NCBI GenBank assembly: GCA_951812955.1
Contig: OX638340.1
Coordinates: 2,976,001 to 3,040,000 of the forward strand
Direction of reading: 5' to 3'
DNA length: 64,000 bases
Origin: an uncultured Gemmatimonadota bacterium
GTDB taxonomy: Bacteria; JAAXHH01
Part shown: positions 422-37,179 of the stretch, one piece after another
How positions within the stretch are numbered: position 1 is the stretch's first letter
Layout: each line of letters begins with the position of its first letter
The notes under the pieces: generated by a model
What the model saw: only the letters and a program-made list of their open reading frames with translations
Databases searched by the model: none
What the model was told of the DNA's origin: nothing
Program-made: the position numbers and the translations under genes

Positions 422-2180
422 GCCGGCTCGTAGCCTGGCCCTCATCGTCCTCATCCAATTGGCTACTCTGACGGCCTCCGCGCAGTACATGCCGGTCGGC
501 CCCGATGACGTGGTCGACCTGTCGCCGGTCATATCCGGACGCCATTACCAGTACTGGCCGGGAGGGCAGGTCCACCACCAGCCCCTCGTCGTACCCTATA
601 TCGTCCATGGCGACCGGCCCTGGGCATCGGACCTGATCATCCTGGACGAGAATACGGCGACGCAGACGGATACGCCGGCCCACATGATGCCGCCCCAGCA
701 CAGCGGGCTGCCGAACGCCCACTACTGGGGCGATTTGACGGTGGAGAAAGTCCCGGCATGGCAACTGGTGGGCGAGGTGTACAAGATCGACGGCCGTTCC
801 ATGCTGGACCAGGCTCCACCGGGCGTAAGCCCCCTGTTTACCATGGACCTGGTCAAGGCGGCCGAGGCAGCCCACAGGCCCATGGGGCCGGGCGATGCCG
901 TTTTGTATTGGAGCGGCTACGACGACCGCCACGATCTGCCCGTGCCCGAGGACCGCCGCCTGATCGTCGAACCGGTCGGCGGGACGGTACCCGGATGGCC
1001 CGCGCCCGATTACGATGCGGCCGAATACGTGGGCAGCCGGGGGGTGTGGCTGATGGGCATCGACAGCCCGAGCATGGGCGGGCTGGGCCCACCGAAGTAC
1101 GCGGCACAGGGTCCAGAGGGCATGTTCGAGAATCCTCTCGCCCTGGAAAGCCATCTCGGCCACTTCAAGTATGGCGCCGTCCATACCGAGGGATTGATCA
1201 ACCTGGGCAGGACACCCAACGGTTCGATGTACATCGCCCTGCCGGTGAAGCACGAGAACTCCCCCACGGTTGAAACCCGGGCCGCGGCCATTGTCAACCC
1301 CGCCCTGGCCTCGAGCCTGCTCGAAGCCGTGAAGGCCAAACGCGTGGTCGACCTGTCCGTCACCCTGTCCATGGAGCATCCAGTCTGGTGGCCGGGCCGC
1401 GGCGTGGGCCGCCACGTCTTCCCCTATTCGAGGGTACAACCCGTAAACTACTTCGATGGACCCTTCGGACCGTACTGGGTCAACACCCACATCATGGATG
1501 CCCATACAGGAACCCATGTGGATCCGCCCGCGCACTACGGTCCTCCGCCCGGATTCGATGAAGCCGCCTTTGACGAAACGACCCGCAGGGCGTTACGGGA
1601 CTTCGAGGCCGCTCACGGAACGCTCAAGCGTACGGAGAGAACGTCGGACAGGATCCCGCTGCACTGGTTCATGGGTCCCGCCCGGGTCATCAACGTGCAG
1701 CATCTTGTGGGGACGACCTCGCGGGAAGACTGGCCGGCGTCACCGGTCATCACGGTGGAGGACGTCAGAAGGCACGAAAGGTTATACGGAGAAATCGAGG
1801 GTGGGGAAGTCGTGCTTTTCCAGACCGGCCATACGGACGCCCACTTCCGCCGTTTCGAGCGCGGCCGAACGGATCAGAGCATCAAATCGCCCCTGGACGG
1901 GCTGTCCGAGGGCTGGCCGGCGCCGGGTCCGGACGTCATCGCCTACCTGGCCGGGAAAGGCGTGAAGCACGTCGGCATCGATGCGCCCGACATGGGTTCG
2001 GTGGATCCGGTTGAATCGATGAAGACGCACTGGGCGGCGGTGAACCACGACATGATCTTCACAGAGTATCTGATTGGCGTGGGGCAGCTTCCGTCGAAAG
2101 GGGCGTTCTACGTCTTCCTGAGTCCCCGGCTCGAGAACAATCACGGCGGACCGGGAAGGGCCATTGCCATACTACCGTAG
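387..2180 (+). CDS. secreted cyclase-family protein (kynurenine-formamidase-like fold), two tandem cyclase-like domains
   Basis: N-terminal signal-peptide-like segment (ARSLALIVLIQLATLTASAQ). C-terminal half has the cyclase-family motif HTGTHVDPPAHY plus HVGIDAPDMGS; N-terminal half has a degenerate copy (TDTPAHMMPPQH, MGIDSPSMGG). Confidence 0.55.
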   Translation: MDFIRKRRSKGKPARSLALIVLIQLATLTASAQYMPVGPDDVVDLSPVISGRHYQYWPGGQVHHQPLVVPYIVHGDRPWASDLIILDENTATQTDTPAHMMPPQHSGLPNAHYWGDLTVEKVPAWQLVGEVYKIDGRSMLDQAPPGVSPLFTMDLVKAAEAAHRPMGPGDAVLYWSGYDDRHDLPVPEDRRLIVEPVGGTVPGWPAPDYDAAEYVGSRGVWLMGIDSPSMGGLGPPKYAAQGPEGMFENPLALESHLGHFKYGAVHTEGLINLGRTPNGSMYIALPVKHENSPTVETRAAAIVNPALASSLLEAVKAKRVVDLSVTLSMEHPVWWPGRGVGRHVFPYSRVQPVNYFDGPFGPYWVNTHIMDAHTGTHVDPPAHYGPPPGFDEAAFDETTRRALRDFEAAHGTLKRTERTSDRIPLHWFMGPARVINVQHLVGTTSREDWPASPVITVEDVRRHERLYGEIEGGEVVLFQTGHTDAHFRRFERGRTDQSIKSPLDGLSEGWPAPGPDVIAYLAGKGVKHVGIDAPDMGSVDPVESMKTHWAAVNHDMIFTEYLIGVGQLPSKGAFYVFLSPRLENNHGGPGRAIAILP

Positions 2181-2195
2181 GAACGGGCGGCCGCC

Positions 2196-2334
2196 CCGCG
2201 CTCGACCGGTGGGTACGCAGCAACACTTACGCGCGCAAGTCCGGGCAGTGCGCGGCCGCACCGGTCCGGTCGGTACGCTGTACCTCCGCGCTCGACAGGT
2301 GGGTACGAAGCCACTCTTTGCCGCGCAGGTCCGT
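2196..2334. repeat. two ~48-bp imperfect direct repeats in the intergenic region (ccgcgctcgac[c/a]ggtgggtacg[c/a]agc...)
   Basis: Copies at 2196-2244 and 2287-2334, period about 91 bp, between the cyclase gene and the AhpD-like gene. Confidence 0.6.
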
Positions 2335-2358
2335 ATCCGCGTGTGGTAAAGCGGCGTC

Positions 2359-2937
2359 TTACGAATCCTCCGCGTCCCGCCCAATCCCCAGGGCGTCCGC
2401 AACGCGGTTGATGTAGTTGAACCACGACGCGATCAATGTGATCTGAAGGATGGCGACGTCGTCGAATCCTACGGACCGTAATCCATCGATATCGGTTTTC
2501 TGAATTCTCGTGGCATCCTCGGTGAGCCGGATGACGAAATCCAGCATCGCCCGATCCTGCTTTTCCAGCGGCGCACTGTCGTAATCGTACTTGAGTGATT
2601 CAACCAGCTCGCTGTCCAACGTGACCCGACGCAGAAACTCTGCGTGCGAGTCAATTCAGTAAACGCACCGGTTAACCGATGAGACCACGGTCGAGATCAT
2701 CTCGTGCTGGCGGCGGTTCAATGGAAGGTCGGGCGACATCAGCACGCCGAAGGTGGCGAAGGCGTGATGCAGCGCGTCCGGGATCAGCGAATGGGATGCC
2801 ACGATCCCGGAGGTGCCGTCTCCTGTGGGGTGCACCGGCGTGTCGTACTCCGCGGGATAGAGCGATCGCTGCGCCTCGAGGGCGGCGAGCAGCCGGTCAT
2901 CCCCTTCTGTCGCGGATATCGTCTTGATCCAGGCCAT
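2359..2937 (-). CDS. AhpD-like / carboxymuconolactone decarboxylase-family peroxidase-related protein with in-frame UGA (putative selenocysteine)
   Basis: ORFs 2656..2937 and 2359..2619 share one frame, separated only by TGA at 2656-2658. Joined sequence reads ...NRCVY-U-IDSH..., matching the AhpD-core redox motif C-x-x-C-x3-H with Sec at the second Cys. Hairpin ACGCAGA-GUU-UCUGCGU starts 10 nt downstream of the UGA. Confidence 0.5.
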
Positions 2938-4279
2938 GATCTTCTCCTGTATTGCTCGTTTGCGTGGATTGATTCCGAAACACGAGATAGTACACCGGAA
3001 TTCCCAGTGCGGTCACCCCCACGCCGATCATGGCCTGCAGCGGACTGTTGCCGAGCAGCAACAGCAGCACCACAGCAGCAAGGAGAAGAAACACGATCGG
3101 GGTGAAGGGATAAAGCGGGACCCGGTACGGCGGCATGTCCGGCCGTTTTCTGCGTATCACGAACATGCCCGCCACGGTCAGGGCGATAAACAGCACGGCG
3201 ACAAAGATGAAGTAATTCAGTATTTGCGTGAAGGTTCCCAGCCACACCAGCAGGGAGGCCAGTCCCCCCTGGATGGAGATCGCGAGATAGGGCGTGCCGA
3301 ATGTGGGATGGACCGTGCTGGCGAAACGGAGGAAGACGCCGTCCGTGGCCATGGCGTAGTATACCCTTGGCGCCATCAACAACAACCCGGTGAGACTGCC
3401 GACGATGGAGAGGATGACCACGGAGGAGAATAGGATGCCCCCGCTTCTTCCGAACAGCACCTCGCCGGCCTGGGCCGCGAAAGTCTCGTCGCTGGTGACC
3501 TGGGAGACCGGCACGAGATACATGAAGACGGCGCTCGTGGAGATATAGGTCAACGCGACAATAACCACGGCCAGTAGCAACGCCCTGGGCAGGGTCTTGG
3601 CCGGATCGCGGATTTCGCCGGCCACCTTGTTCAGATCCCACCAGCCGGCGAAGGCGAAGAATGCGCCCACGATGCCGCCCGCGAGCGCGCCGAACAGCGG
3701 TCCAGAGTCCGCGGGCCGTGCCACGAAGGGGGTGAAATTCGACCAGTCGCCGAGGCCCAGGCCGAAGCCCAGGATGGATATGACGGCGAGTACACCGACC
3801 TTGAAAATCGTCAGCAGGACGATGATCAACGCGCCGATGCGCACGCCGTAGATGTTCACTCCGGTGAGGACGATCAACACGGCGATGGCGAACATCTTCA
3901 TCGCGGCCGGCTCCATCGGATAGATGTGGGCCGCGTAACTCGCCATGCCGGTCGCCAGGGTCGCCGTGATTCCCGGATCCAGCACCATAAGCGACATCCA
4001 GCCGTACAGGAAGGCGGTCCGGGTGCCGTAAGCCTCGCGAAGATAGACGTATCCGCCACCCGCGTGGGGAAACCGGGAAGCCAGTTCTCCAAAGCAAAGC
4101 GATCCGCTCAGGGCCATCCCTGCCATCGCCAGCCAGATGACGAGCAGTAGCAGGGGGGATCCCAAAGACTTGGCCATCCCGGCGGGTACCAGGAATATGC
4201 CCACGGCGATCATGCCGCTGATCACCATCGCCGTGGTCGGCCAGATACCCAGTTGTCGACGCAGGTTACCCGAGGTCAT
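2897..4279 (-). CDS. APC-family amino acid permease
   Basis: 460 aa, about 12 predicted TM helices, N-terminal region typical of APC amino-acid/polyamine permeases (GxxxGxGIFxxP-like). Confidence 0.7.
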   Translation of the reverse strand: MTSGNLRRQLGIWPTTAMVISGMIAVGIFLVPAGMAKSLGSPLLLLVIWLAMAGMALSGSLCFGELASRFPHAGGGYVYLREAYGTRTAFLYGWMSLMVLDPGITATLATGMASYAAHIYPMEPAAMKMFAIAVLIVLTGVNIYGVRIGALIIVLLTIFKVGVLAVISILGFGLGLGDWSNFTPFVARPADSGPLFGALAGGIVGAFFAFAGWWDLNKVAGEIRDPAKTLPRALLLAVVIVALTYISTSAVFMYLVPVSQVTSDETFAAQAGEVLFGRSGGILFSSVVILSIVGSLTGLLLMAPRVYYAMATDGVFLRFASTVHPTFGTPYLAISIQGGLASLLVWLGTFTQILNYFIFVAVLFIALTVAGMFVIRRKRPDMPPYRVPLYPFTPIVFLLLAAVVLLLLLGNSPLQAMIGVGVTALGIPVYYLVFRNQSTQTSNTGEDHGLDQDDIRDRRG

Positions 4280-4318
4280 GAAGAAGGTTTCATTGAGGCC
4301 GCGGTATGGACCGGTTGC

Positions 4319-5122
4319 TCACACCAGTTCAGGTTCGTTTTCGATCCGGCTCAACCAGTAGTGGTTGTCGAACTGGTCGTCTCCGGTCAGGAATCGCCAG
4401 AAGTGGATACGATTGACGTGTTCGATGCGTTCCTCGTTCCCGTGCCAGGGCTGGTTCGTACTTAAAATATGGTTTACTTCCGGGTCGTCGATGTCGTCCG
4501 TATTCCACAGACGCAGCTGCCGGACCGTGGGGTTGAGGCGCAGTTTGAACATGTAACGCTTTTCGTCGGTCCGGTTCGGCTGGGCGCAGTGCCACATGCC
4601 GTGATGGAGGACGATTACCGTCCCGGCCTTGCACACCATGGGTACCTGCCCCACGAAGTTGTGATACCGGGCGATGTCGGATTCACTGATCCGGCGGTAG
4701 TGGCTTCCGGGCAGGATCAACGTTCCGCCCATCTCCCTGGGCGTATCGTGGGCGAAATACATGAACTGGATGTCGAAATGCTTCCGCGTGTCGATAATGG
4801 CGTCCGCGTGCCAGTGCTGTCCGAAATGGTGGCCCGCCGCCACGGTGTGCACGGCATGGTGGTCGTACAGCGGGTCCTTTCCCACGAGACTGTGGATGAT
4901 ACCTTCGATCTCCGGCAGCCTGAACACACGTCCCACGGCCGTATCGTTCCAGATCGTGCTCAGGGGCGAACCCGCTTCTTCCCGGGGTACGGCCTGGTCG
5001 TCCATCTCCCGTTTAACGGCACGGTTGAGCTCATCGGGAACCAGTTCATCGAAGCGGAGATATCCTTCCGCGACAAACCGGGCCATCTGCTTGGAATTCA
5101 ATAGATGGGTGCTGTCAGCCAT
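4319..5122 (-). CDS. phytanoyl-CoA dioxygenase (PhyH)-family Fe(II)/2-oxoglutarate oxygenase
   Basis: HWHAD (HxD) iron-binding motif and distal His (HHGMWH); size and motif spacing typical of the PhyH family. Confidence 0.6.
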   Translation of the reverse strand: MADSTHLLNSKQMARFVAEGYLRFDELVPDELNRAVKREMDDQAVPREEAGSPLSTIWNDTAVGRVFRLPEIEGIIHSLVGKDPLYDHHAVHTVAAGHHFGQHWHADAIIDTRKHFDIQFMYFAHDTPREMGGTLILPGSHYRRISESDIARYHNFVGQVPMVCKAGTVIVLHHGMWHCAQPNRTDEKRYMFKLRLNPTVRQLRLWNTDDIDDPEVNHILSTNQPWHGNEERIEHVNRIHFWRFLTGDDQFDNHYWLSRIENEPELV

Positions 5123-10635: not shown

Positions 10636-11829
10636 TCATCGCGCCGTATTCATGTCGATCAGCAGCGACTCGCCGATAGCGTGATACCGGTCCGCTGCTT
10701 CCATCAGGTCCCGTGCCGTGTTGTGCGGGAAGGAGAACACCTCCACGCGCGGACCCAGTTCCTTGAGCAACTGGATCAGGGATACGAAATCACCATCGCC
10801 GCTGGCCAGGATGACGACGTCGACCTTTTCGGCCATTCTGATCATGTCGATGGCCATCTCCATGTCCCAGTCTCCCTTCGCGGAGCCGTCGCTGCGCCTG
10901 CGGAGGTCTTTCCGCTTAACCTGGTAACTGAACTGTTCCAGCATGGTAACGAACCCGCTCTGGTCCACTTCCGGAGTCTGAATCACGTATGCGTTCGCGC
11001 AAATCAGCCGCCTGTCACCCACGGCCGCCTGCAGGAGTTTCTCAAAATCCAGCCTGGCGGATATCCCGTAGTGCTGCCGCGCGGCGTACCACATGTTCTG
11101 CACGTCGATGAAGATGGCCACTCTCTCATCGATGGGGTGTCCGCGAACAACCTGCCCGCCGGGATCCGATTCGTGACGCAGGTTACTGAGTTGATCCACC
11201 TCCTGGCGGACGGCCTTTAAGGCTTTAAGGACGTCCATGCAGTGCGTCTCGATGTGTTTTACGGTGTCCCGAATAGCCGATCCCAGGTCCCGCGCCGCCG
11301 GGGAGGAGGGTACTCCCGCGGCCTCACCGTCCAGAACCGAATCACCCCGCAGGTACGGGAACGCCGTTTCTTCCGATACTCCAGACCGGGCGGGATCCGC
11401 CGGGGTCCGGTTCAGGAGTTCAATGGCTGGAGCGTGCACGGCCTCCCGCTCATCCAGCAGCATGGCCGTCGCCAGCCGCCCGCACTCCCGGCTGTAGGCG
11501 CTGGTGCGATCGCCCAGCAGCGAACCGATGCGCCCGGGGGACGTCGCGCCGACCCTCGAAATCTCCCTGGCGCTGGATTGAACCAGGGTACTGACGACCT
11601 GGGCAGCCGTGACCTCACGCTCGAAACAGTCCCTGGCAAGCTGAGTTGCCAGCACATGGGTCTCCGTGGACTCCAGGTCCTGGCCGTCGCTGGCCAGGCC
11701 GCAGATGTGGCAGAGTTTGGCGATCAAACTACGGTCGAGGGCGAGTTCCAGAAGCCGTGCCAGTCCGCTCTCGTCGACCCTTCTGAAGAGATGCCGGTAG
11801 TCCGGTAGTGTGTTGTGCCGATTCTCCAT
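10636..11829 (-). CDS. NYN (LabA-like) nuclease-domain protein with uncharacterised N-terminal domain
   Basis: C-terminal VAIFIDVQN...GDWDMEMAIDM...ILASGDGDF matches the NYN/LabA PIN-like fold acidic residues; N-terminal ~230 aa unrecognised. Confidence 0.55.
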   Translation of the reverse strand: MENRHNTLPDYRHLFRRVDESGLARLLELALDRSLIAKLCHICGLASDGQDLESTETHVLATQLARDCFEREVTAAQVVSTLVQSSAREISRVGATSPGRIGSLLGDRTSAYSRECGRLATAMLLDEREAVHAPAIELLNRTPADPARSGVSEETAFPYLRGDSVLDGEAAGVPSSPAARDLGSAIRDTVKHIETHCMDVLKALKAVRQEVDQLSNLRHESDPGGQVVRGHPIDERVAIFIDVQNMWYAARQHYGISARLDFEKLLQAAVGDRRLICANAYVIQTPEVDQSGFVTMLEQFSYQVKRKDLRRRSDGSAKGDWDMEMAIDMIRMAEKVDVVILASGDGDFVSLIQLLKELGPRVEVFSFPHNTARDLMEAADRYHAIGESLLIDMNTAR

Positions 11830-11871
11830 GTCTCCACCGAGCTTTCGACAGGCTGCCGCGGTACCTCGCGG

Positions 11872-13083
11872 TCATCCCGCCAATGACGAAAGTCCTTTCT
11901 CTACCCGGTCCATCCCTTGCTCGATAACATCCAGGGTGGTTGCGTAGGAAAACCGCAGGCATCCTTCCGTCCCGAAGGCGGCGCCGGGCGCCGAGACGAC
12001 CTGGTACGCCTCGAGCAGGTACATTGCGAGGTCCAGCGATCCCTCGATGGGACTCCCGTCGGGCCGGCTGTGGCCCGAATAGGCCGACATGTCCGGGAAT
12101 ACGTAGAACGCGCCGCCGGGCCGGGCGCACGTCACGCCTTCCATGTTTTCCAGTCTTTCTATAATGTAGTTCCGGCGTTGATCGAATGCCCGAATCATGG
12201 GGGGCAGGAAGTCCTCGGGACCGGTCAGTGCGGTAATGGCCGCATGCTGGGTGATGGCGCTCGGATGCATGACGGTCTGCCCCTGGAACTTCACGACCAG
12301 ATCCATCACTTCTGCGGGACCGGCGGCGTAACCCAGGCGCCAACCGGTCATGGCGTACGCCTTGGACAGCCCGTTGACCACCAGCGCCTGTTCCTTCATC
12401 CGCGGATGAAGGGCCGCGATGCTCTCGTGGCGATGACCGTCATACAGGATTTTCTCGTACAACTCGTCGGTTATGACGAATATCCCGGATTCCATGACCA
12501 CTTCGGCAATGGCGTCGAGTTCTTCACGTGTGTACACCATGCCGGTAGGATTGGAAGGGGTGTTCAGCATGAGTGCCTTGGTCTTCGGCGTAATCGCGGA
12601 CCGCACCTGGCCGGCCGTCACCTTGAAAGAAGAGGATGAATCCGTATCCAGTACCACCGGCACGGCGCCCGCCAGTTTCACCATCTCGGGATAACTGACC
12701 CAGTATGGCGCCGGGACGAGGACTTCGTCTCCTTCGTCGCAGATCACGTATAGCAGGTTGTACAGGGCGTGCTTGCCGCCGGATGTCGTAGCAATTTGGT
12801 TTGGAGCGTACTCGAGTCCGTTATCCCTGGCCAGCTTGTGGCAGATCGCTTCCTTCAGGTCCAGGATGCCGGTCGCGGGTGTATACCGTGTTATGTTCTC
12901 CCTTATCGCCTCCATGCCCGCTTCCTTGATGTGCTCCGGCGTGGGGAAGTCCGGTTCACCCACGGCGAAGTTGAACACATCGACGCCGTCGCGTTTCATC
13001 GCGATGGCGCGTTCGTTGAGCACGGTGGTCGCGGAGGGTGCGATGCGATCCAGTTTTCGGGAAAGGGGACGTATAACAGGCAT
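11872..13083 (-). CDS. class I/II pyridoxal-phosphate aminotransferase (aspartate aminotransferase-like)
   Basis: LNTPSNPTG, SKAYAMTGWRLGY (PLP-Lys region), 403 aa. Confidence 0.8.
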   Translation of the reverse strand: MPVIRPLSRKLDRIAPSATTVLNERAIAMKRDGVDVFNFAVGEPDFPTPEHIKEAGMEAIRENITRYTPATGILDLKEAICHKLARDNGLEYAPNQIATTSGGKHALYNLLYVICDEGDEVLVPAPYWVSYPEMVKLAGAVPVVLDTDSSSSFKVTAGQVRSAITPKTKALMLNTPSNPTGMVYTREELDAIAEVVMESGIFVITDELYEKILYDGHRHESIAALHPRMKEQALVVNGLSKAYAMTGWRLGYAAGPAEVMDLVVKFQGQTVMHPSAITQHAAITALTGPEDFLPPMIRAFDQRRNYIIERLENMEGVTCARPGGAFYVFPDMSAYSGHSRPDGSPIEGSLDLAMYLLEAYQVVSAPGAAFGTEGCLRFSYATTLDVIEQGMDRVEKGLSSLAG

Positions 13084-13132
13084 TGGAATGGGGCGGCGCG
13101 TGGTGTGGGTCAGGCTTTAGTATGACCAGCGC

Positions 13133-13618
13133 TCAGGTGGTCGACCCGCGCTTCTCCGATAGCGCATTTAACACGGGAGGCGGGACTTGATGGCTTACAT
13201 CGCCACCGAATCGGAAGACCTCTTTGACGAGCGAAGAACTCACGTACACCGATGGTTCCCCGGGAAAGAACGAGACCGTGACCACCGTTGGGGCCAGGTG
13301 TCGGTTCATGAGCGCCATCTGGGATTCTGTTTCCAGGTCTCCGGTCGATCGAACACCACGGACAATGGCGCCTGCGTCTAAACTTTTTGCCAGGTCGACG
13401 GTCAACCCGTCCGAAGATAGTACTTCGACCCCTGACCAGCCATCCACGGCCCGCCGGAACAGGTCCACCCGTTCATCCACCGAGAACATCGGGTGCTTGC
13501 CTATGTTGGGCGCAACGGCCACCACGACCCGGTCGAACACGGCCAGCGCCTGTCTCAGTACGTCCAGATGTCCGTTGGTCACCGGATCGAAAGTACCGGG
13601 ATACACCGCAACTTTCAT
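13133..13618 (-). CDS. coaD: phosphopantetheine adenylyltransferase
   Basis: AVYPGTFDPVTNGHLD nucleotidyltransferase motif; 161 aa; 4-nt overlap with rsmD. Confidence 0.9.
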   Translation of the reverse strand: MKVAVYPGTFDPVTNGHLDVLRQALAVFDRVVVAVAPNIGKHPMFSVDERVDLFRRAVDGWSGVEVLSSDGLTVDLAKSLDAGAIVRGVRSTGDLETESQMALMNRHLAPTVVTVSFFPGEPSVYVSSSLVKEVFRFGGDVSHQVPPPVLNALSEKRGSTT

Positions 13619-15098: not shown

Positions 15099-18000
15099 TC
15101 AGTTGAAAACGAACTCGGTCCACAGCCCGCCGCCTCGCCGAATCCGTTTCTGCCGGGTGATTACATTCAGCGTATTCGTAAACTCGAGCGTGACGCCGCC
15201 GCGGATGTACCTGCTGAACCGATAGTCCGTCGTGACCGAGAACCGGTTCTGATTCTGTCCGTTGCTGGGTTGGAAATCGCCGGCTATCCGCGATATAAGC
15301 GTCTCGTTGGTATTCCGGGTGTATTGCAGCCGGGCGTTAATGTCCCCGCTCGTCCGCTTCCCGAAGATCCGGATACCGGACCTGAGCCGGTAGTCCACCG
15401 CGACAGTGAGTGACCTGTTCTGCTGTTTCTGGTCGGTCGCGTTCCGTCCGAACTCGGTCAATCCGTCTAATGTTGTAAAGTTGCCTCGAATCACCACGCC
15501 CGCGTTCAGATCGAAGACGAAGCCGATCAGAGGAGACAGGGAAGTCGTGGTCGTCCGGGTGATACCGGCTTCACCAGGGTCCGTATCTCCCGCAGACCCC
15601 TGCGCGACCGCGGGGGCCACCTGCCCCAGGTCGGTGTTCTTCCCCTTGCGTCTCGAGTACCCGCTGGACAGTTCGATGCGGCGGAAGCTCCGGCCGAAGT
15701 CGCCCATGCTCCTGAGATTGGGACTCCACCGCAGGTTTACTTCAGGCCATGTGGTGTTATTCTGCTTCCGGTTCAGATTTGAGGACCGGTTATGGGTCGA
15801 CACCCACGTGGGCCGGATGGACAGGGTCGCGCCGCGTAACCGGATTCCCGTTCCCAGGTTGAAGGAAGACCGGTTCGCTTCCGACTCCTGGTTACGCTGG
15901 ATGCCGGTAACTCCGCCACCGGACCCCAGGGTATCGAACAGTACCGAGAAACTATCCGACAGCCCCATGCGTTCCCGCAAGGTCGGGCGGGATACCGCGT
16001 TGAAGAAGTTCTGGTTGCGGCTGATCGTGTAGTTCAGTGTGACCGGCGTGAAGTTACTCAAGACTGCGGCAAGCCGGTCCGACACGTTTCGTCGGAACCA
16101 TCCTGCGTCTTCTGGACTCGATCGTCGAGAAGATTCCCCGAGGACGTTCGATACCATTCTAGCCAAATTGACGTTCGTTCGCACGCCCTGCTGGTTGCTG
16201 AACGTGATGGTCCGCGCGCTTGGAGAAGCTCCGACAAGTTGCAACTGTGGATTCCGGTTCTCCGCGTAAGACGTGGTAAAGTTGTAGGACGGCCTGAACC
16301 AGGTCGTGATACCGGGACGATAGTCGACACCCAGGTTCTGGCGGTAGCTGGTTTCTGGACCGAATTCCAGCTTGGTAAAAGATACGGTGGAATCGGATTT
16401 CATGTCGTTGGAAACCGCGAGGTTGTAATTCATCCTCAAGGATCCGAAAGGTTCCATGATTGCCCGGATATTTCGGTTTAGATACCTGATGAAACGTTCG
16501 CCGCGGTCCGTACTTGCCGCCTCCGTTTCACCGGTGTTTCCGGCCACGACGGACTGCCTCGCCCTGTTGAGGTAGATCCGCCTGTCGCGATTTACTTCCG
16601 AGAACAACTCCAGTCGTACGGGCAGCGGGTTGAAAGTCAGTCCTGAAATAGACTCCGGCAATGGCATCCATCTTAGAATCGGCCACTGGATCTTAGAGCG
16701 CGGGGTCAGGTTGTAATGCAGTCGGGCCCGGTAGGAGCCGGACGTATCGATCCTGGAGACCGAGTGACGGAAATAACTGGTCGACGTGAAATCGAACCGG
16801 AATCGCTCCAGGGTCCAGGCGACGAAGGGATTCCTTGAACCGATACGCTTGGAGAAAGAAGCCGAAAACGAGCGGTCGTTGTTCTCCGTGCGCTGCGCTT
16901 CACGCTGTTCCTGGTTCAACAGGACGATATCGGACCCTACCTGCAACCGCGGCAGCCTCAGGTCGTTCTTCCAGCGGAGACGGAGTGGAATGGACAGTCC
17001 CCAGTCTTCCGGCAGCATGTTTCCCAGATTCAACAGGGAGGAAAAGTTTATCAAAGTGGATCTGCTCCCTGATTCTTCACCGCCAATCCTGCGGAAGTGA
17101 CTGCCCACGCTTCTGACGGTTCCGAACACTGATAAAACGTCGGCGAGATCGGCGTCGAACTTCAGTCGGCCGGCAAGTCCCCGGTCGCGCCTGACATCGC
17201 CCGCCCTCAGTTCGTCCAACCAGAGCTCACCTCCCACCAGAACCTGGTCGTAAGGATTGTAAATCCCCACTGTGATATGGCGAACACGGGCCAGGGCGGG
17301 TGAACCCAGAACCCTGTACTGCCTGTTTCCCTCCAGTTCGACTATGGCCAGCGTAAGCCCCTCATTTCGAGGACCATCCTTGAATCGCACGGGACGTGAA
17401 ATCCCGTCGCTCAGCGTAACCGCATAGGTCGTATCCGTTGTCGTCACCGTCCTCCGCGCTGTTTCCGTTTCGCTCTTGAGGACCGTCAGATCGTCGAAAA
17501 CGACCCTGAGATGGTTCGCTTCGTCCCATCCGGGCAAGACACGCGTCCGATATTCGTAATAGTCGAATTCTCCGCTTCCGAATCGAATAAAAAACTCGGG
17601 CGATCGGCCTGGTTCGAAGTTGTCCGAGCCGTGAATGTAAAGCCGCAGCGTGTTGTAGAGCGTATAGTCCTGATCGGAAAACAGCGTACGATAAGCCTGT
17701 GCGCTGTGGTGCGGCTGCAGGTTGGTATAGGTGATGATCAGGGACTGTTCCTTGTTCTGGAGGCCGGTCACCCGGTCGTACTCGATGATCGCACCGGGAG
17801 GCGACGTATATTCACCCGGATTGTCGTATGTGTTCTTCACGGCGACATCGAAAGTCTCTCCGGCGGCGGACAACGCGGAAGCAGGAACCGGATTGCCGGT
17901 GGAATCGGTTATCGCCCCGGTAAAGTCTTCCTGCCATTGGTTGCCGACGATATTGATGGAGGCGATACGCGTTTTTACCGGCTCGTCCACCTCCGTGATC

Positions 18001-21000
18001 CAAAGCCTGACCATTTCGATCCGCTCGAATGTCGGCATGCCCACCGAACCGGCGTAAGCGCGGTTCGCCAGGCCGGCAGCGCCTTCGGCCGTTTCTACAT
18101 CCGCACCGTCCTGGCGGTCCATGCCGTCCAACGACGGGTCCACACCGGCCGTCGCACCGAGGATTTCGGTGTCCAGCGGTATGCGGTACATGCGCCAGCT
18201 GTCCGGATTGCCCCAGTTGGAGCGATCCAGGTCGCCGCCGGCTACGAGCACCGTGTCATCGTGGTCCGGACTCAGATTCACGGCGAATTCGAAATAGTCG
18301 TTTTGTAAGTCCAGAAAGCCGGAGTAATCGAGATCTTCGGTATCGGGCCGACGGTTCTGATCCGGATCGTTGGCATTCACTTCCGGTCCGTTGATTTTGC
18401 TGTAGTCGACCTGGTCGACCGGCACGGAGCCACCCTTCGTACCTTTGAAGTGGAAGTTGTCCCCGTGTGGATCGGGGTTGCTCACCGGATCGTAACCGGC
18501 CTCCTCTTCGTCCCTCAGACCGTCCATCCCGATGTCTTCTTCCGGTTCCAGGAGGTTGTTGCCGAATCCGCCACTCCGGTCGTCTTCCGTATCCAGACTG
18601 TCGTTACCGTTGACATCCTCGCTGATTGCCCCGAGGTCGATATGCAGTTCGCCGCGATTCCCGTTCACCCATATCTCGATGAACCGGCTGCGCGTCTGGT
18701 CCACGTTGGCCCCGGAGAGCGGATGCATCAACCCGGCCCACCTGTTCAGCACGTCGCCCTGGCCGTTTTCCCGGCCGGGCGCGCTGAAGGTCGAGTCCGC
18801 AGACAAGCCGCCCCAGCGAAGGTCGGGTTCCGTGGGATCGTATTCCATGATCAGCACGTGCTGCAACTGGTCGCGGCCCGTGACCTCGCGGGTGGGGTAA
18901 ATCTGGCGGACATCGACCTGTTCGAGGGGATTGTACCAGATCATCCGGCCCCGCTGTTGGTGTTCGTATCGATCGGGTGGGCTGGCCGGCCGCCAGCCGC
19001 TCCGGCGCACGCCCAGGTCTGTTTCCTCCTTGCTTCCTTCGAAATCGTCGATAAACCCGTCGCCCAGGATATTGGGGTTGGGAACGCTCTGAGCCAGTTC
19101 GGCCTCGATGATCAACGAGGACGATTCGTCCGCCAGGTCCGCGGGGGAGATGAAATCCACGAAGGAAGTCAGAAAGTCAGGTTCGAACGCCAGCCGCGTA
19201 TCGATCCCCCACATCATGTACCGTCCGGTTTCACGGCCGATCCGGGACTTCTGCTCCAGGGACTTGTCGGACCGGTATAGAAATGTGCCTTTAATCCAGG
19301 ACTGTTCGCTGAACTGGTATTCACCCTGAAATCCCATCAGGGTGTTCGACACAGGCTTGAAGAACGGGGCAAACTGGAACTGGACGGTCACGTCCGCATC
19401 CGGGGTCAGAGCCTCCTCGTTCGTGAAACGGATCTGCCCGACTTCGTAGAGAATGATGTAATCGGTTCCCCGCTGCAGTTGCTGGCCGTTCAATCGCACG
19501 ATTTCACTCCCCTCGATGATATTGGTCCGCCCGAGGGAGTACTGGGACAACTGGTTACGGTATTCGACTTCAAGGAAGTACTTGTTCAGCCTGCTGTGCT
19601 GGCTGAAGATCTGTTCGCTCGAAAGATTATAGAACCCGGGCGTTTCATCGGGAAGGCCTTCGCCCTGCGTATTCGGATAGGCCAGTTGGCCGGCGGATGT
19701 TACGGTCAGGGCGGGCGCGAAGGGATACTGGTCCGGGAAAATCAGTTCCCCGCGTTCGAAATTGAACAACGCATAGTCGATGTCGACGATCCGGTCGGGC
19801 TCGGAACCGGGGTCCACCCCCCTCCGGTCGAGCCCCAGCAACTGGATGAAGGGCGTCCCGTTCTCGTCGACCTCACTGTGCTCGCCCTCGGACTGCAACT
19901 GGTAGATTCTCAATTCGAAATTGTTCGGATCGATGTCCGTCTGGCCGAGGTAATACACATTCCGCCACTCGTACTGCCAGGTGTCCCACTGGGCGGGATC
20001 GTCCGGGGCGGCGGGAGGGCGCTCCTGCTGCCGCTTGAGCAGGCGCAGCAGCGGGACGTCGCCTTCCAGTCGGCCGTACTTTTTGACTTCTCCGTTCTGG
20101 TTCACGGTCTCGTAGTATACTCCGAGCATGTCGTCTTCTTGCAAGGGCGTGTTCAACGCGATGTAGCCGAATTGCTGGTTTACGTAGAATTCGTCGGATT
20201 CCAGGTACCTGAACTTCCCTTCCACGAATTCACCCGCCTCGGAACCCTGGATGAGCACATCCTCCGAGTCGTACACGGGGGGATCCGGATAGGCATTGGC
20301 ATTGACCAGCTTGGCCTGGTTGGTCAGGGTGAGCCGTCCCGACACGTAGACCTGGATGACACGCACCGAGTCATCGGGCGCGACGCGGGACCCGTTTACG
20401 TCCCTGCGCGAGAAATCGCGGCGGTACTGCTCATCAATGAAATAGTAGGTCCTGCGCCTGAAGTCGAGGTCCCGGATCACCCGCTGAGACCCTTTGGTCC
20501 CGGCCTGGAACGTGGCGGATTCTCCTTCTCCCTTCTCCTGGCTGGCGATCGCGGTCAGGTGGAAGCTGCCGAGTTGGCCCGTCATTTTGACTCCAAACAA
20601 TCCGGTGTGCTGCTGCGTATAGCCCGTGAACTCCGTGTTCTTCAGATCGAGAGAAACGTTTCCAGCCTCGAAACTCTTCAGGATGCCGTTCCCATCCCGG
20701 CCGTCGTCGTAAACGTCCTGGTACCGAATGGCAAGGTTGTTGTCGAGGTCGGTGAACGCTTCGCTGTTCTGCTTGATGTTCACCTCGACCTTCTGGCCTA
20801 TGTTCCCGGAAACGGTAAACTCCTGGTTCTGCTTCATGGAAATGTTCGGTGCGCGAGAGAACCGGTTTGTCGCCGTACTCGCGCTGCCTTCCGTCCATTC
20901 GCTGGCCATGTCCATCTCGATGCGCTGGTTTCCGAGAATACGAATAACGGGCGTGCCGCCGCCCAGAAAAGTAGGCAGGTTCACCGGCAGATCGAGGGTC

Positions 21001-21401
21001 AGAAGGCCTTCCTGGCTCAGTCGGGTTTCGGTGTCGAAGACGTAGGACAGCACGGACGTTCGCCACAGTTTTTTGAATTGAGCCGCACTGCGAAGTCGGT
21101 AATATTGGTCAAAAGAGAGGACCAGGGGCACGCGGCGGCCAAGCCCCCGTTCTGCGTCTATGAAAGCCAGTAGCAGGAGGTCGGGATAGACGACGGTCCG
21201 GCCGCCCAAAGGCAACGGCCGGTCGGAGAGGGTACGCAGTGCCGGTCTGTTTTGCCCGCGGGCGATTTCGTCGACCTCATCGAAAGCAACGACGTGCAGG
21301 CGTGCGCTTTCGAGCCGGATCGCCGGGCCTTCCGCCAGTGCGGAGAAGGTCCACAGGGATATCAGCACGTGGCTGAAGACAATCGGACAAATGCGTTTCA
21401 T
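15099..21401 (-). CDS. giant (2100 aa) secreted/outer-membrane protein, SprA-like (type IX secretion translocon / cell-surface protein SprA family) candidate
   Basis: Signal peptide MKRICPIVFSHVLISLWTFSALA; 2100 aa with beta-rich composition throughout. Size, architecture and lineage context resemble SprA of FCB-group bacteria. Assignment is by recollection, not alignment. Confidence 0.4.
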   Translation of the reverse strand: MKRICPIVFSHVLISLWTFSALAEGPAIRLESARLHVVAFDEVDEIARGQNRPALRTLSDRPLPLGGRTVVYPDLLLLAFIDAERGLGRRVPLVLSFDQYYRLRSAAQFKKLWRTSVLSYVFDTETRLSQEGLLTLDLPVNLPTFLGGGTPVIRILGNQRIEMDMASEWTEGSASTATNRFSRAPNISMKQNQEFTVSGNIGQKVEVNIKQNSEAFTDLDNNLAIRYQDVYDDGRDGNGILKSFEAGNVSLDLKNTEFTGYTQQHTGLFGVKMTGQLGSFHLTAIASQEKGEGESATFQAGTKGSQRVIRDLDFRRRTYYFIDEQYRRDFSRRDVNGSRVAPDDSVRVIQVYVSGRLTLTNQAKLVNANAYPDPPVYDSEDVLIQGSEAGEFVEGKFRYLESDEFYVNQQFGYIALNTPLQEDDMLGVYYETVNQNGEVKKYGRLEGDVPLLRLLKRQQERPPAAPDDPAQWDTWQYEWRNVYYLGQTDIDPNNFELRIYQLQSEGEHSEVDENGTPFIQLLGLDRRGVDPGSEPDRIVDIDYALFNFERGELIFPDQYPFAPALTVTSAGQLAYPNTQGEGLPDETPGFYNLSSEQIFSQHSRLNKYFLEVEYRNQLSQYSLGRTNIIEGSEIVRLNGQQLQRGTDYIILYEVGQIRFTNEEALTPDADVTVQFQFAPFFKPVSNTLMGFQGEYQFSEQSWIKGTFLYRSDKSLEQKSRIGRETGRYMMWGIDTRLAFEPDFLTSFVDFISPADLADESSSLIIEAELAQSVPNPNILGDGFIDDFEGSKEETDLGVRRSGWRPASPPDRYEHQQRGRMIWYNPLEQVDVRQIYPTREVTGRDQLQHVLIMEYDPTEPDLRWGGLSADSTFSAPGRENGQGDVLNRWAGLMHPLSGANVDQTRSRFIEIWVNGNRGELHIDLGAISEDVNGNDSLDTEDDRSGGFGNNLLEPEEDIGMDGLRDEEEAGYDPVSNPDPHGDNFHFKGTKGGSVPVDQVDYSKINGPEVNANDPDQNRRPDTEDLDYSGFLDLQNDYFEFAVNLSPDHDDTVLVAGGDLDRSNWGNPDSWRMYRIPLDTEILGATAGVDPSLDGMDRQDGADVETAEGAAGLANRAYAGSVGMPTFERIEMVRLWITEVDEPVKTRIASINIVGNQWQEDFTGAITDSTGNPVPASALSAAGETFDVAVKNTYDNPGEYTSPPGAIIEYDRVTGLQNKEQSLIITYTNLQPHHSAQAYRTLFSDQDYTLYNTLRLYIHGSDNFEPGRSPEFFIRFGSGEFDYYEYRTRVLPGWDEANHLRVVFDDLTVLKSETETARRTVTTTDTTYAVTLSDGISRPVRFKDGPRNEGLTLAIVELEGNRQYRVLGSPALARVRHITVGIYNPYDQVLVGGELWLDELRAGDVRRDRGLAGRLKFDADLADVLSVFGTVRSVGSHFRRIGGEESGSRSTLINFSSLLNLGNMLPEDWGLSIPLRLRWKNDLRLPRLQVGSDIVLLNQEQREAQRTENNDRSFSASFSKRIGSRNPFVAWTLERFRFDFTSTSYFRHSVSRIDTSGSYRARLHYNLTPRSKIQWPILRWMPLPESISGLTFNPLPVRLELFSEVNRDRRIYLNRARQSVVAGNTGETEAASTDRGERFIRYLNRNIRAIMEPFGSLRMNYNLAVSNDMKSDSTVSFTKLEFGPETSYRQNLGVDYRPGITTWFRPSYNFTTSYAENRNPQLQLVGASPSARTITFSNQQGVRTNVNLARMVSNVLGESSRRSSPEDAGWFRRNVSDRLAAVLSNFTPVTLNYTISRNQNFFNAVSRPTLRERMGLSDSFSVLFDTLGSGGGVTGIQRNQESEANRSSFNLGTGIRLRGATLSIRPTWVSTHNRSSNLNRKQNNTTWPEVNLRWSPNLRSMGDFGRSFRRIELSSGYSRRKGKNTDLGQVAPAVAQGSAGDTDPGEAGITRTTTTSLSPLIGFVFDLNAGVVIRGNFTTLDGLTEFGRNATDQKQQNRSLTVAVDYRLRSGIRIFGKRTSGDINARLQYTRNTNETLISRIAGDFQPSNGQNQNRFSVTTDYRFSRYIRGGVTLEFTNTLNVITRQKRIRRGGGLWTEFVFN

Positions 21402-33777: not shown

Positions 33778-34088
33778 GATCCGTCTCCTGGAGTAAATGA
33801 CCTTGGGGAATTTGCTCCCGATTTTCGGGTAGGAAAGGGTAAGGGCATGCTAAATCACCGGGCAAGGCGTGTCAATACAATTCGCCGGTGCCGGAGGCCT
33901 GAGAATGCGTTGCATTGCGGCTGGTCCCGCTCTATCTTCAATCAGAGCGGTATGGCGCGTTCTGTCAGAGGGACTATGCCGCGTTCGACCGAATGTCTTC
34001 GGACCACGAAAAAAACAGCCCCACCGATCGGATCGCATGATATTCGTGCATAACGCCATTTGAGAAAGTTTATGATGTCAGGGACGAT

Positions 34089-34427
34089 ATGGTGATCAAT
34101 TCAAGTAATGCAGAACATTACAAATGGGGCAAAGACTGTGATGGATGGCACCTCCTGAATACCACTTCCTTGAGCGTAATCAAAGAAAAGGTACCCAAGG
34201 GTGGCGTGGAAGAGATGCACTATCACATGTATGCACAGCAGTTATTCTATGTTTTGCAGGGTGTCGCCACCATTCAACTGAGGGAGGAGACCTACAGGGT
34301 GCCGCAAGGCGAGGCAGTACATGTCCCACCGAATACGCCGCACCGATTGGAGAACGCCGGGGAAGAAGACCTCGAATTCCTCGTCATATCTCAACCCCAT
34401 AGTCACACTGACAAGATAAAGCGCTGA
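34089..34427 (+). CDS. cupin-domain protein
   Basis: 112 aa; HYHMYAQQ...VHVPPNTPH metal-binding cupin motifs. Confidence 0.6.
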   Translation: MVINSSNAEHYKWGKDCDGWHLLNTTSLSVIKEKVPKGGVEEMHYHMYAQQLFYVLQGVATIQLREETYRVPQGEAVHVPPNTPHRLENAGEEDLEFLVISQPHSHTDKIKR

Positions 34428-34487
34428 CTTCAGGGGAACCGCGAGCGAGTTCATCGGATACCAAACCTTGAAACACCCTTTAAACCT

Positions 34488-35582
34488 ATGAAAACCTATC
34501 GCGTGGGAATCATCGGCCTGGGTCGCATGGGCAGTACCATCGACGACGAGGGCCACACACCCCTTCCTTACTCCATTGCCGCAGCCTGCCGGGCGAGTGA
34601 ACGGCTGGAAATCGCCGCGGGCTGCGACCTTCTGCCGGAACGCAGAGGGGATTTCACCCGGCGCTGGCGCGTCCATGCCGTGTACGAGGACTACACGGAA
34701 ATGGTCCGGGAGGAGCGACCGGATCTCGTCGCCGTATGCACCACCGCATCGGGCCTGCAGAAACCTGCCAGGGAGGCGCCCGACGCTTCGTTCCGTGGAG
34801 ATTCCCACGCCGAACTGGCCGTCGCGCTGGCTGAAATGGGCGTGCCGATGATCTACGTGGAGAAGGCCATGGCCAGCTCCATGGCGGCGGCGGACCGCAT
34901 TCGGGACGCCGTGAAGAAAAACGGCACGGTATTCAATACGGGTGTATTGAGGAGGTTCGACAACCGGTACGAGGTGGTCCGCAACGCTGTGCTTCGGGGG
35001 GATGTGGGCGAGCCCAGGGCGGCCATCCATTACGCGCAATCTTCCCTGATGCACGGCCACATACATTCCATCGATACCCTGTCCTGGCTGATCGGAGATC
35101 CCGCCATTTCGAGCGTTCGCGGTGAAATCGCGCCCAGGGATTACGTCATAGAAAACGACCATATTCCCTACGATCCGACCGCGACCTACGAACTGATGTT
35201 CGAGAACGGTGTACGGGCGTGGTCGATTCCCGCGGCGGGATGGGAGTACGAGATCATCGGGACCGAAGGGACCATCCGGTCCCTGAACAACGGGGCCGGC
35301 GCCTCGTTAAGAAGGGTTCCGCCGGGAGACGGACACGAGCGCAAGGGGCGCAGCAACTGGGAAGAGGCGCCTTTCGATTTCGTAACGCCAAAGAGCACCG
35401 TCGTATCCTGCCTCGAAGATCTTGTTAACGCATATGAGACGGGCCGCAAGAGCCTGGGGAACATCGAAACAGCCCACCACATCACGGAAGCCTGCATCGC
35501 CGTCGCCGAAAGCCATCGTCGCGGCGGTGCCTGGGTTGAACTACCGCTGGCTGGCCGGGACCTCTACATCTGGCACGTTTGA
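34488..35582 (+). CDS. Gfo/Idh/MocA-family NAD(P)-dependent oxidoreductase
   Basis: N-terminal Rossmann VGIIGLGRMG; 364 aa. Confidence 0.7.
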   Translation: MKTYRVGIIGLGRMGSTIDDEGHTPLPYSIAAACRASERLEIAAGCDLLPERRGDFTRRWRVHAVYEDYTEMVREERPDLVAVCTTASGLQKPAREAPDASFRGDSHAELAVALAEMGVPMIYVEKAMASSMAAADRIRDAVKKNGTVFNTGVLRRFDNRYEVVRNAVLRGDVGEPRAAIHYAQSSLMHGHIHSIDTLSWLIGDPAISSVRGEIAPRDYVIENDHIPYDPTATYELMFENGVRAWSIPAAGWEYEIIGTEGTIRSLNNGAGASLRRVPPGDGHERKGRSNWEEAPFDFVTPKSTVVSCLEDLVNAYETGRKSLGNIETAHHITEACIAVAESHRRGGAWVELPLAGRDLYIWHV

Positions 35583-35657
35583 ATGCTCGATCGGAAGAAC
35601 ACGGGCTGACAAGGCAGCAATCGATTACACTAGTCGGACTAAAAGAGCGGGCTGTTC

Positions 35658-35873
35658 TCACTGACGACTATTGGAATCGTTGTACGTTACGAGGTCCGCG
35701 ATCGCAATCCGGATCATTCGGATGTCTTCCTTGATGTCTTCAAGCGTCGTTTTTACTCCACTTTCAAACCCCTCTCTCTTCCCCATCCAAAGGCACAGTT
35801 TTACTATAGCCCCGATTATAGCGATCAACAGTACGGTAACAACCGCCGGCAACCACGAAGGCATCGATTCCAT
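35658..35873 (-). CDS. small hypothetical membrane protein (71 aa)
   Basis: Single N-terminal TM helix; sits in a low-GC, ORF-poor stretch. Confidence 0.25.
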   Translation of the reverse strand: MESMPSWLPAVVTVLLIAIIGAIVKLCLWMGKREGFESGVKTTLEDIKEDIRMIRIAIADLVTYNDSNSRQ

Positions 35874-36462
35874 CGGGTTTCCTTTCTGAGCAAATTTACC
35901 GTTCCGTGCGAAGGTTCACGAGAAGAATAGCTTGATCAGGATCGCGACGGTCATGACCGACTGGCCAATTGCTACCGTTTCGATGCGGGATAGGCGCTTG
36001 TCTCTATCTTTTCAATGATACCTTCCAGGCGTCCGATACGTCCTTCATGGTTCGTACTTTCGGCCGGCATGAACCAGTTTCATTCCTTCGGTGGCACTCG
36101 TTGTGCGGTGCAGAAGGTTTGAATTACAAGTTTCCCTGACCTCGTCTACTTTGTTTCCACCCTGTTTAAAAACCCCGTATATCCCGGAGTTTCTCACTTA
36201 TTTCAGCTTGCAGGCTACCCATTTCAGTTCCCATACACTTCGTCATACGCCCACGATGTCAGAGGTTCCTTTTTCCCTTAGTCGGGGAATGGCCTTGAAT
36301 CTCGTAATTAAAAAATGAAATCTCAGCGTACCGTTAAGTCGTCCGTGTTATCCTGGTCTTGTGGTCTTTAAAAGCGCTGGATAGAACCTCGTAGAATCAA
36401 AAGTGTCTTGGGCGGTCCATTGATTTGTAAGCGCATAGGTATTGCCCGATATTGGAAAGAAT

Positions 36463-37179
36463 TCATTGTCTTGAATGAAGTCTCTCAGGCAAGGGAAGAT
36501 TGGATTCCACCTGTACCAACCGGTCTTCTTCCAATACGTATCCACTCAGGGACCCGCCATAGACACATCCCGTGTCCAAGCCGATCACGTAAGGCGAACC
36601 GTCTCCCCGGCGTTTGGCGACAAGGCCGCCAGGCGCGTCGTGGCCGAAAATGATTAGTTTACCCGAGGGCTCATAGGCGTCATGCCATCTCGGTCCCACG
36701 ATGCCTTCCACGGGAGGCCAGGTTCGGATGACGAGAAACTCGTCCCGGGTAGTCCCTTGCAGGCCTTTTACCGGGTTGATGCCCGCGTGGACCAGGAGGA
36801 AATCGGGTTCGTCGATCCACAAGGGAAGCGATTCCAGCCAGGGGATCAGGGCTTCCGCGAAGGGTGCGAGGGCTTCCAGGGTTTGACGGTATACATGCCA
36901 TTTTACGGGCACCGGCTCTCCGGACAGGTGCCTGCGTAGCCGATCCGGCAGCCTGACATCGTGGTTGCCGAGGACCATCCTGGCATTGGTATCCTGGATC
37001 AGCTTCCACACTGCGACGGGATCCGGACCCTTGGTAAAAGCGTCGCCCGTCAGATAGAGGAGATCCGTATCCCGCTGGAATTCCAGTTTGGAGATCAGTT
37101 GTTCGAATTCACGGGCGCAGCCGTGAATGTCGCCGATGAACAGGGTACGCAAGGGAATACAGGACTCCGGAATGATCAA
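36463..37179 (-). CDS. calcineurin-like metallophosphoesterase (ApaH/PrpA-like Ser/Thr phosphatase family)
   Basis: GDIHG...GD...GNHD phosphoesterase motifs; 238 aa. Confidence 0.7.
   Translation of the reverse strand: MIIPESCIPLRTLFIGDIHGCAREFEQLISKLEFQRDTDLLYLTGDAFTKGPDPVAVWKLIQDTNARMVLGNHDVRLPDRLRRHLSGEPVPVKWHVYRQTLEALAPFAEALIPWLESLPLWIDEPDFLLVHAGINPVKGLQGTTRDEFLVIRTWPPVEGIVGPRWHDAYEPSGKLIIFGHDAPGGLVAKRRGDGSPYVIGLDTGCVYGGSLSGYVLEEDRLVQVESNLPLPERLHSRQ

Follow-up and report, generated by a model that had tools for sequence, protein, structure and literature searches.

An AhpD-like gene with a conserved in-frame UGA codon and a SECIS-like hairpin in an uncultured Gemmatimonadota bacterium

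Does the UGA codon that interrupts an AhpD-like gene of an uncultured Gemmatimonadota bacterium terminate the protein, or is it read as selenocysteine (Sec)? The question arises from a stretch of 64,000 nucleotides (assembly GCA_951812955.1, contig OX638340.1, positions 2,976,001 to 3,040,000), hereafter called the window, in which two adjacent open reading frames (ORFs) on the minus strand share one frame and are split only by a TGA at 2656–2658. The original prediction, made from the letters of the window alone, had placed this UGA at the second Cys of the AhpD core motif, had described a hairpin resembling a bacterial selenocysteine insertion sequence (SECIS) downstream of it, and had named a nonsense mutation and a sequencing error as alternatives. 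In this study, we analyzed the reading frame, the protein family, the relatives of the gene and the RNA hairpin, and conclude that the locus is most probably a functional Sec-encoding gene in which UGA codon 94 specifies Sec; we put the probability of this reading at roughly 0.93.

Reading frame, protein family and active site

The whole AhpD-like gene occupies positions 2359–2937 of the minus strand. Coordinates and frame were confirmed by re-reading of the sequence: the ORF runs from an ATG at 2937–2935 through the TGA at 2658–2656 and onward in the same frame to a TAA at 2361–2359, and the joined product has 192 residues, encoded by 192 codons ahead of the TAA, of which codon 94 is the single in-frame UGA. 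The same ATG was chosen as start by the gene callers in six other assemblies. In the program-made ORF list, the two halves appear as products of 93 aa (2656–2937) and 86 aa (2359–2619, with an internal TTG start).

With the UGA rendered as Cys, the joined ORF matched TIGR01926 ('peroxidase-related enzyme') with 112.5 bits (cut-off 81.8) over model positions 37–174 of 178. It also matched the AhpD core domain TIGR00778 (39.3 vs. a cut-off of 27.8) and Pfam CMD (33.2 vs. 23). The gene is an AhpD-like member of the TIGR01926 'peroxidase-related' family in the carboxymuconolactone decarboxylase (CMD) superfamily. Identity with the AhpD equivalog of the Mycobacterium tuberculosis type was ruled out, with a score of 22.5 bits against the 191.95 bits set for TIGR00777 (Mycobacterium-type AhpD). 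Among relatives with solved structures, 2pfx was the best match (E = 8e-24), followed by 3c1l, 2oyo, 6k40 and 2prr (to 5e-17), all over residues 54–189; judged from these matches, the protein would have the all-helical AhpD-like fold.

The active site of AhpD-type proteins has the spacing E-x11-C-x2-C-x3-H, in which the second Cys of AhpD is the nucleophilic one. By residue count, the window gene reads E79-x11-C91-x2-[U94]-x3-H98, so that the UGA (2656–2658) stands at the second Cys of the motif, where it had been placed initially. Alignment with Cys-containing homologs and with the solved structures gave the same result, the CxxC of the N-x-C-x-Y-C-x-x-x-H motif of the PDB relatives falling on C91/U94. 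Glu79 (codon GAG, 2701–2703), Cys91 (TGC, 2665–2667) and His98 (CAC, 2644–2646) are invariant among the relatives (alignment A1). Cys91, which opens the C-x-x-U redox pair, is Cys in 158 of 158 unique sequences. The conserved RNA core described below begins with the codon of His98, the catalytic His; this codon is CAC in all 158 and CAT in none.

Gene callers report separate products of 93 aa and 86 aa (or 62 aa), and on this annotation the locus would consist of two genes, perhaps those of a split enzyme. However, the called downstream start varies among assemblies (86 vs. 62 aa), and the 12 codons that separate the TGA from the TTG start at 2619 encode the invariant I-[ED] segment including His98, which is conserved as protein. 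Moreover, the Cys-type homologs are single chains of 188 aa. We therefore consider two separate genes very improbable and treat the locus as one gene with an internal UGA.

Conservation of the UGA codon and translation beyond it

The relatives used for comparison comprised all fetched DNA except loci picked as Cys controls. These 167 unselected relatives consist of 80 metagenome loci, 80 loci from GTDB species representatives, one paralog (L140) and six same-species assemblies. Codon 94 is TGA in 167 of 167, and TGG was found in none. The nearest metagenome-assembled genomes (MAGs) go under the labels Gemmatimonadetes (protein identity 97%) and Candidatus Latescibacterota (86–89%), while more distant ones carry the labels Gemmatimonadota, Acidobacteriota, Planctomycetales, Verrucomicrobiae, KSB1 and others. 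Full-length homologs in a collection of 5.8 billion proteins showed 61–74% identity. No relatives were found in a scan of viral contigs. One MAG, labelled Deferribacteres (L140), carries two paralogs at 10279 and 13476, i.e., 3.2 kb apart, both with the TGA and the same hairpin.

A change of the catalytic Cys codon (TGC/TGT) to TGA is a one-base change in the case of TGC, and public gene callers do end the product at 93 aa; the gene might accordingly be a pseudogene, dead or truncated by a nonsense mutation. This is contradicted by the presence of the same TGA in 167 related genes from several phyla and by the pattern of selection. The ratio of nonsynonymous to synonymous substitution rates (dN/dS) against ten relatives was 0.12–0.24 after the UGA and 0.09–0.23 before it, and no frame-breaking indels occur among close relatives; dS among relatives keeping both the UGA and the SECIS was about 0.4–0.6. 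Since purifying selection on the downstream half equals that on the upstream half, the downstream half is translated and a pseudogene is excluded. The dedicated hairpin, conserved in the TGA forms only, is a further argument against a dead gene, for which we see hardly any room.

Even less probable is a sequencing or assembly error at 2656–2658, which has nothing in its favor beyond the general possibility of such errors. Within the assembly collection, the identical 93-aa N-terminal product turns up in 27 blocks; of the contigs with it, at least 18 were read, some of them 3.8–3.9 Mb long. Six same-species copies were fetched from assemblies that represent several metagenome samples and have the local gene order of the window. 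They differ from the window at 8–21 of 579 nt and carry the TGA in six of six cases; the occurrence of TGA in all of these differing copies excludes a sequencing error. Both alternatives raised at the outset are thereby answered.

Another explanation for a translated UGA would be that the codon has been reassigned organism-wide to a sense codon (Trp or Gly). At the UGA position, the best 120 database homologs have Trp in about 75 cases, always in the context W-I-[ED]-S-H, and the remaining ones have Cys save one Leu and one Ser, which at first sight favors reassignment to Trp. However, the DNA has TGA at every fetched locus and never TGG, and these Trp residues are therefore artefacts of gene callers on short contigs, such as those of the Joint Genome Institute (JGI); protein P0022, for example, is locus L043 translated with TGA as W. 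Furthermore, TGA is the stop of 30 of 45 long ORFs of the window, where it is the commonest ordinary stop and also ends the adjoining permease gene, so that the standard genetic code is in use and reassignment is excluded. No other coding region needs read-through of UGA, the 64 kb showed no conserved TGA within the frames of housekeeping genes, and a second TGA-joined ORF pair with a redox motif was not found in the window, in which other candidates were adjacent genes or off-frame noise. We thus give reassignment as little credit as the sequencing error, and a translated UGA within the standard code is retained.

Some of the database homologs deserve separate mention. The protein with Leu at the Sec position (P0055) and the one with Ser there and Asn in place of His (P0067) may be inactivated copies, while P0056 and P0059 combine Cys with the 'IESH' context of the Sec type.

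The hairpin downstream of the UGA and the machinery for selenocysteine

A hairpin begins 10 nt after the UGA. It consists of ACGCAGA (2645–2639), the loop GUU (2638–2636) and UCUGCGU (2635–2629), and the loop reads AGUUU if the closing A-U pair is open. In the window, an extended hairpin (2623–2652) can form in which an outer GACUCG (2652–2647) pairs with CGGGUC (2628–2623), leaving C2646 bulged, and the RNA folds as GACUCG(C)ACGCAGA-GUU-UCUGCGUCGGGUC. The folding energy was −8.2 kcal/mol for the 17-nt core (z = −4.5 vs. shuffles), −17.9 kcal/mol for the 30-nt version (z = −5.3) and −24.9 kcal/mol for a 67-nt context (z = −2.85). From the z-scores of the core and of the 30-nt fold, the hairpin is more than a chance structure.

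The current model of bacterial SECIS elements (PMC13188914) has a loop of 3–9 nt and an upper stem of 4–16 bp (Fig. 2 legend), a loop sequence N1-G-[G|U]-N-N2 with the G among its first two nucleotides, a UGA-to-loop distance of 16–37 nt and a minimum free energy of at most −7.5 kcal/mol. The window hairpin lies within all of these ranges, with a loop of 3 nt (GUU) or 5 nt (AGUUU), a stem of 7 or 6 bp, a spacing of 17 or 16 nt and −8.2 kcal/mol, and its loop A-G-U-U-U fits the consensus. The claim that the hairpin starts at a SECIS-like distance from the UGA thus holds. No Rfam family matched the window at gathering thresholds.

The strongest evidence for a constraint on the RNA comes from synonymous sites in the core CACGCAGAGUUUCUGCGU (2629–2646), which comprises codons +4 to +9 after the UGA (CAC GCA GAG TTT CTG CGT). 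Among 158 unique Sec-type sequences, the third-position entropy in these codons was 0–0.34 bits, compared with 0.53–1.83 bits at nearly all other codons, apart from Met and the UGA. Of 163 distinct Sec-type genes, 146 share exactly this 18-mer, and the remaining ones have one or two base changes that keep at least 6 bp. The 18-mer is absent from seven of seven Cys-type genes. Although these seven homologs have the same H-x-E-F-L-R peptide, they differ at 2–6 of the 18 nt, their hairpins reach 0 to −4.9 kcal/mol, and the codons used are CAT, GCC/GCG/GTC/CTC, GAA, TTC, CTC and CGC/CGG/CGA/AGG. As the 18 nt are frozen in UGA genes and not in Cys-type genes with the same peptide, the RNA constraint tracks the UGA and not the peptide. 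The G of the loop stems from the GAG codon, whose synonym GAA never occurs in the 158 sequences; pairing cannot account for this preference, while a contact with SelB would.

Two of the Cys-type loci (L163 and L174) have a partial hairpin, CAUGCGGAGUUUCUGCGR, with −4.9 kcal/mol. These partial hairpins, like the Sec-type context of P0056 and P0059, may reflect recent conversions from Sec to Cys.

Across the family, the upper stem is 99% paired and nearly invariant, with no double changes. For this reason covariation is lacking, and the support for the structure is the conservation at synonymous sites. A supposed compensatory change in L097 was rejected: the T-to-C change disrupts the A-U pair that closes the loop, and the A-to-G change yields G-U. 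Likewise, the outer GAC...GUC stem was rejected as a conserved part, as it is paired in 64% of 150 sequences, no better than in shuffles, and a swap of the 3′ flanks among sequences did not weaken folding (−13.97 vs. −14.03 kcal/mol). Judged from these comparisons, the conserved element comprises the 7-bp upper stem and the loop only, and the outer helix is particular to the lineage of the window. The hairpin initially described was therefore correct in position, core and folding within the window, whereas its outer pairing is not conserved across the family. Altogether, the comparisons support a real constrained element that fits the bacterial SECIS model.

The degree of conservation is itself unusual. 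The 18-nt core has the same letters throughout in about 90% of the 163 genes, which come from MAGs assigned by their labels to at least five phyla and encode proteins that are only 65–75% identical; neighboring synonymous sites around the frozen core are saturated, and the wobble synonyms CAU and UUG, which would preserve pairing, are never used in the Sec-type core. The identity of the core exceeds what pairing and a fixed peptide demand. Candidate causes may be a stricter sequence recognition, selection against weaker stems, or common descent of gene and SECIS. A bolder proposal, to which we give only about a third of the credence we would give its denial, is that gene and SECIS form a frozen, portable unit and that either recognition by SelB is more sequence-specific than in the current model or the element has a second function. 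If this tentative proposal were true, the sponge/coral-associated Latescibacterota/Gemmatimonadota lineage of the window would be Sec-decoding.

Indirect evidence for the decoding machinery comes from one relative. In a Longimicrobiales MAG with a 76% identical protein (L092), a selB gene lies 7 kb from the Sec-type gene (TIGR00475, 366.7 bits vs. a cut-off of 242.25). It is located at 11378–13288 on the minus strand, and the contig ends 400 nt beyond. This selB was the only match in a tblastn search for which approximate E. coli SelA, SelB and SelD queries were used. A database search with the SelB of L092 gave 120 proteins, all from Longimicrobiales or other Gemmatimonadota; among these 120 matches listed, none was traceable to the species of the window, whose contigs of 3.8–3.9 Mb carried none of them, and the accessions looked up belonged to other MAGs. 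Given that the UGA and the SECIS are kept across relatives, we infer that the species of the window would possess the Sec machinery as well.

With translation beyond the UGA established, the remaining competitor is read-through without Sec, either by a near-cognate Trp or Cys tRNA aided by a hairpin acting as a generic stimulator, or by a SelB-like factor with a Cys-charged tRNA resembling tRNA-Sec. In some bacteria, tRNA-Sec-like tRNAs are reported to carry Cys, and the inserted residue is not identifiable from sequence alone. Against such a mechanism, the hairpin agrees with the SECIS model of the SelB type in its loop sequence, its spacing and its energy, L092 with the same gene and hairpin carries a canonical selB, and the family is catalogued as Sec-containing. 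In addition, TGC would be the cheaper way to satisfy a lasting need for Cys, as seen in homologs of the Cys type. Read-through without Sec is improbable on these grounds, even though it is the least improbable of the alternatives, and Sec at codon 94 is preferred.

Several points weigh against decoding as Sec. As the original prediction had stated, the window itself holds none of the genes required: ARAGORN found no tRNA in the 64 kb, Pfam models detected no selA, selB or selD among its 47 long ORFs, and Rfam gave no hit. No tRNA-Sec was found by ARAGORN in the 1.64 Mb of the window and the fetched loci together. The Cys-type control set is small, with seven loci only, and the stem, which hardly varies, offers no compensatory base-pair change. 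Finally, Sec at residue 94 is a prediction from sequence evidence, and the role of the enzymes of this subfamily is predicted by homology to AhpD.

If codon 94 is decoded as Sec, the course of events suggested by the SECIS model would be as follows. At the UGA, the hairpin 10 nt downstream would offer its apical G-U to SelB carrying Sec-tRNA(Sec), and Sec would be inserted at codon 94 in place of termination by release factor 2. By homology to AhpD, Sec94 and Cys91 would then form a C-x-x-U pair flanked by Glu79 and His98, which would cycle between the selenol/thiol and the selenenylsulfide state and thereby reduce a peroxide or a peroxiredoxin-type partner. SelB-dependent insertion, selenium content, chemistry and substrate are all predicted features in this scheme.

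Genomic context and relation to known systems

Upstream of the selenoprotein gene lies a gene for an amino-acid permease of the APC family (2897–4279, minus strand; AA_permease_2, E = 7.8e-58), whose stop is located 41 nt inside the selenoprotein ORF (overlap 2897–2937). A Shine-Dalgarno-like AGGAG (2944–2948, minus strand) was read from the sequence 6 nt 5′ of the ATG, within the 3′ end of the permease gene. Of 143 loci whose upstream DNA was long enough, 44 show the order permease, then AhpD-like gene; the permease also adjoins the Cys-type homologs in L163, L164 and L174. The 41-nt overlap and the recurrent adjacency suggest an operon; the two genes probably form a conserved operon and are probably co-transcribed. 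The exact permease protein was not found in protein records, and a promoter and terminator scan of 2100–4500 gave no sites.

Further features were observed in and around the window. Between the converging AhpD-like and cyclase genes, a 48-nt direct repeat (2196–2243 and 2286–2333) is 83% identical with a period of 90 nt. Its 18-mer core CGTACCCACCNGTCGAGC occurs twice in the window (0.02 expected by chance) and twice, at a spacing of 60–95 nt, in L081, L168 and L172; it is not present in L167 and L169–L171, and the gap between the genes is shorter in L167, L169 and L171. Being present in some strains and absent in others, the repeat is therefore strain-variable. In L161 (1713–2567) and on the JGI contig of P0096, a Cys-type homolog adjoins a gene or gene pair with an EF-hand and a T4_deiodinase/AhpC-TSA/Redoxin domain; deiodinase-like proteins are a known selenoprotein family (PMC2398784). 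The stretch 34000–42000 has a G+C content of 0.53–0.56, compared with about 0.60–0.62 elsewhere in the window. An ORF with collagen triple-helix repeats (37665–39188), with a low G+C content of 0.50 at third codon positions, belongs to this low-G+C stretch, and a gene for a phage-type integrase (42233–43192) lies just beyond it; the stretch may have been acquired as an island. On the minus strand, an ORF of 2,100 residues (15099–21401) has a SprA_N domain (type IX secretion/gliding), consistent with an organism of the Fibrobacteres-Chlorobi-Bacteroidetes (FCB) group.

The main value of the finding lies in annotation. In the species of the window, only two fragments of the gene are recorded, of which the C-terminal ones are named 'hypothetical protein [Gemmatimonadetes bacterium]' by NCBI (MCY4546326.1, MCY3770594.1); NCBI records of this uncultured lineage bear the label Gemmatimonadetes or Latescibacterota. 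In about 75 of the 120 best homologs, a false Trp stands at the catalytic Sec, and any functional or structural inference from such entries would miss the active-site residue. What is new here, in a small way, is the selenoprotein identity in a lineage annotated only as fragments; a literature search on Sec use in Latescibacterota or Latescibacteria returned nothing on point. Decoding of Sec would imply that this uncultured lineage needs selenium. The dataset also offers a clear case from nature in which constraints on RNA and on protein fall on the same 18 nt, while general knowledge on selenoproteins is unchanged.

On the RNA level, the reference for comparison is the SECIS of E. coli fdhF, which is bound by SelB. 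Both elements are hairpins that lie within the reading frame, directly 3′ of the UGA, and have an apical-loop G-U at a fixed distance. The sequences are unrelated, and the window element has a spacing at the short end (16–17 nt), a minimal loop (GUU/AGUUU) and no conserved bulged U. SECIS elements of different genes usually have no common sequence (PMC13188914), a diversity with which the almost invariant core of the window type across phyla stands in contrast.

On the protein level, the window gene shares with M. tuberculosis AhpD the CMD/AhpD fold family and the spacing E-x11-C-x2-C-x3-H, its UGA sitting where AhpD has the second Cys. It differs in the predicted use of Sec instead of Cys, and no ahpC lies near the window gene. 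The solved relatives, i.e., 2pfx, 3c1l, 2oyo and 2prr ('uncharacterized peroxidase-related proteins') and the AhpD entry 6k40, are all Cys forms, and their identity to the window protein is about 40–45% or less as judged by eye from the alignment. Within the AhpD superfamily, NCBI has flagged two groups as possible selenoproteins, NF041238 (AhpD_rel_CFYUT) and NF053654 (YciW-related (seleno)proteins). Both were matched weakly (57.7 vs. a cut-off of 175 and 27.5 vs. a cut-off of 310, respectively), and membership in either was rejected with scores this far under the cut-offs.

The closest known system is the AhpD-like selenoprotein family, which has been listed in the literature by name and by TIGR01926 since 2005, in agreement with the initial statement that the family is not new. 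In the Sargasso Sea metagenome, 27 'AhpD-like protein' selenoproteins of COG2128 with CxxU and predicted SECIS elements were described (PMC1088965). A genome survey of 2006 listed AhpD-like (COG2128) selenoproteins and counted Acidobacteria among the selenoprotein-containing phyla (PMC1794560), the Global Ocean Sampling study reported 299 Sec and 902 Cys members for 'AhpD-like 1' (PMC2398784), and a review of 2026 has the entry 'AhpD-like protein, TIGR01926, CxxU' (PMC13188914). The window gene and the family described from the Sargasso Sea (PMC1088965) have in common TIGR01926, the CxxU motif with Sec for the second Cys, a SECIS that follows directly downstream and whose small apical loop contains a G, and abundant Cys homologs. 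Nothing essential differs in this comparison, which did not extend to single nucleotides of the marine genes in the literature, and the window gene is a further member of a catalogued selenoprotein family rather than a new kind.

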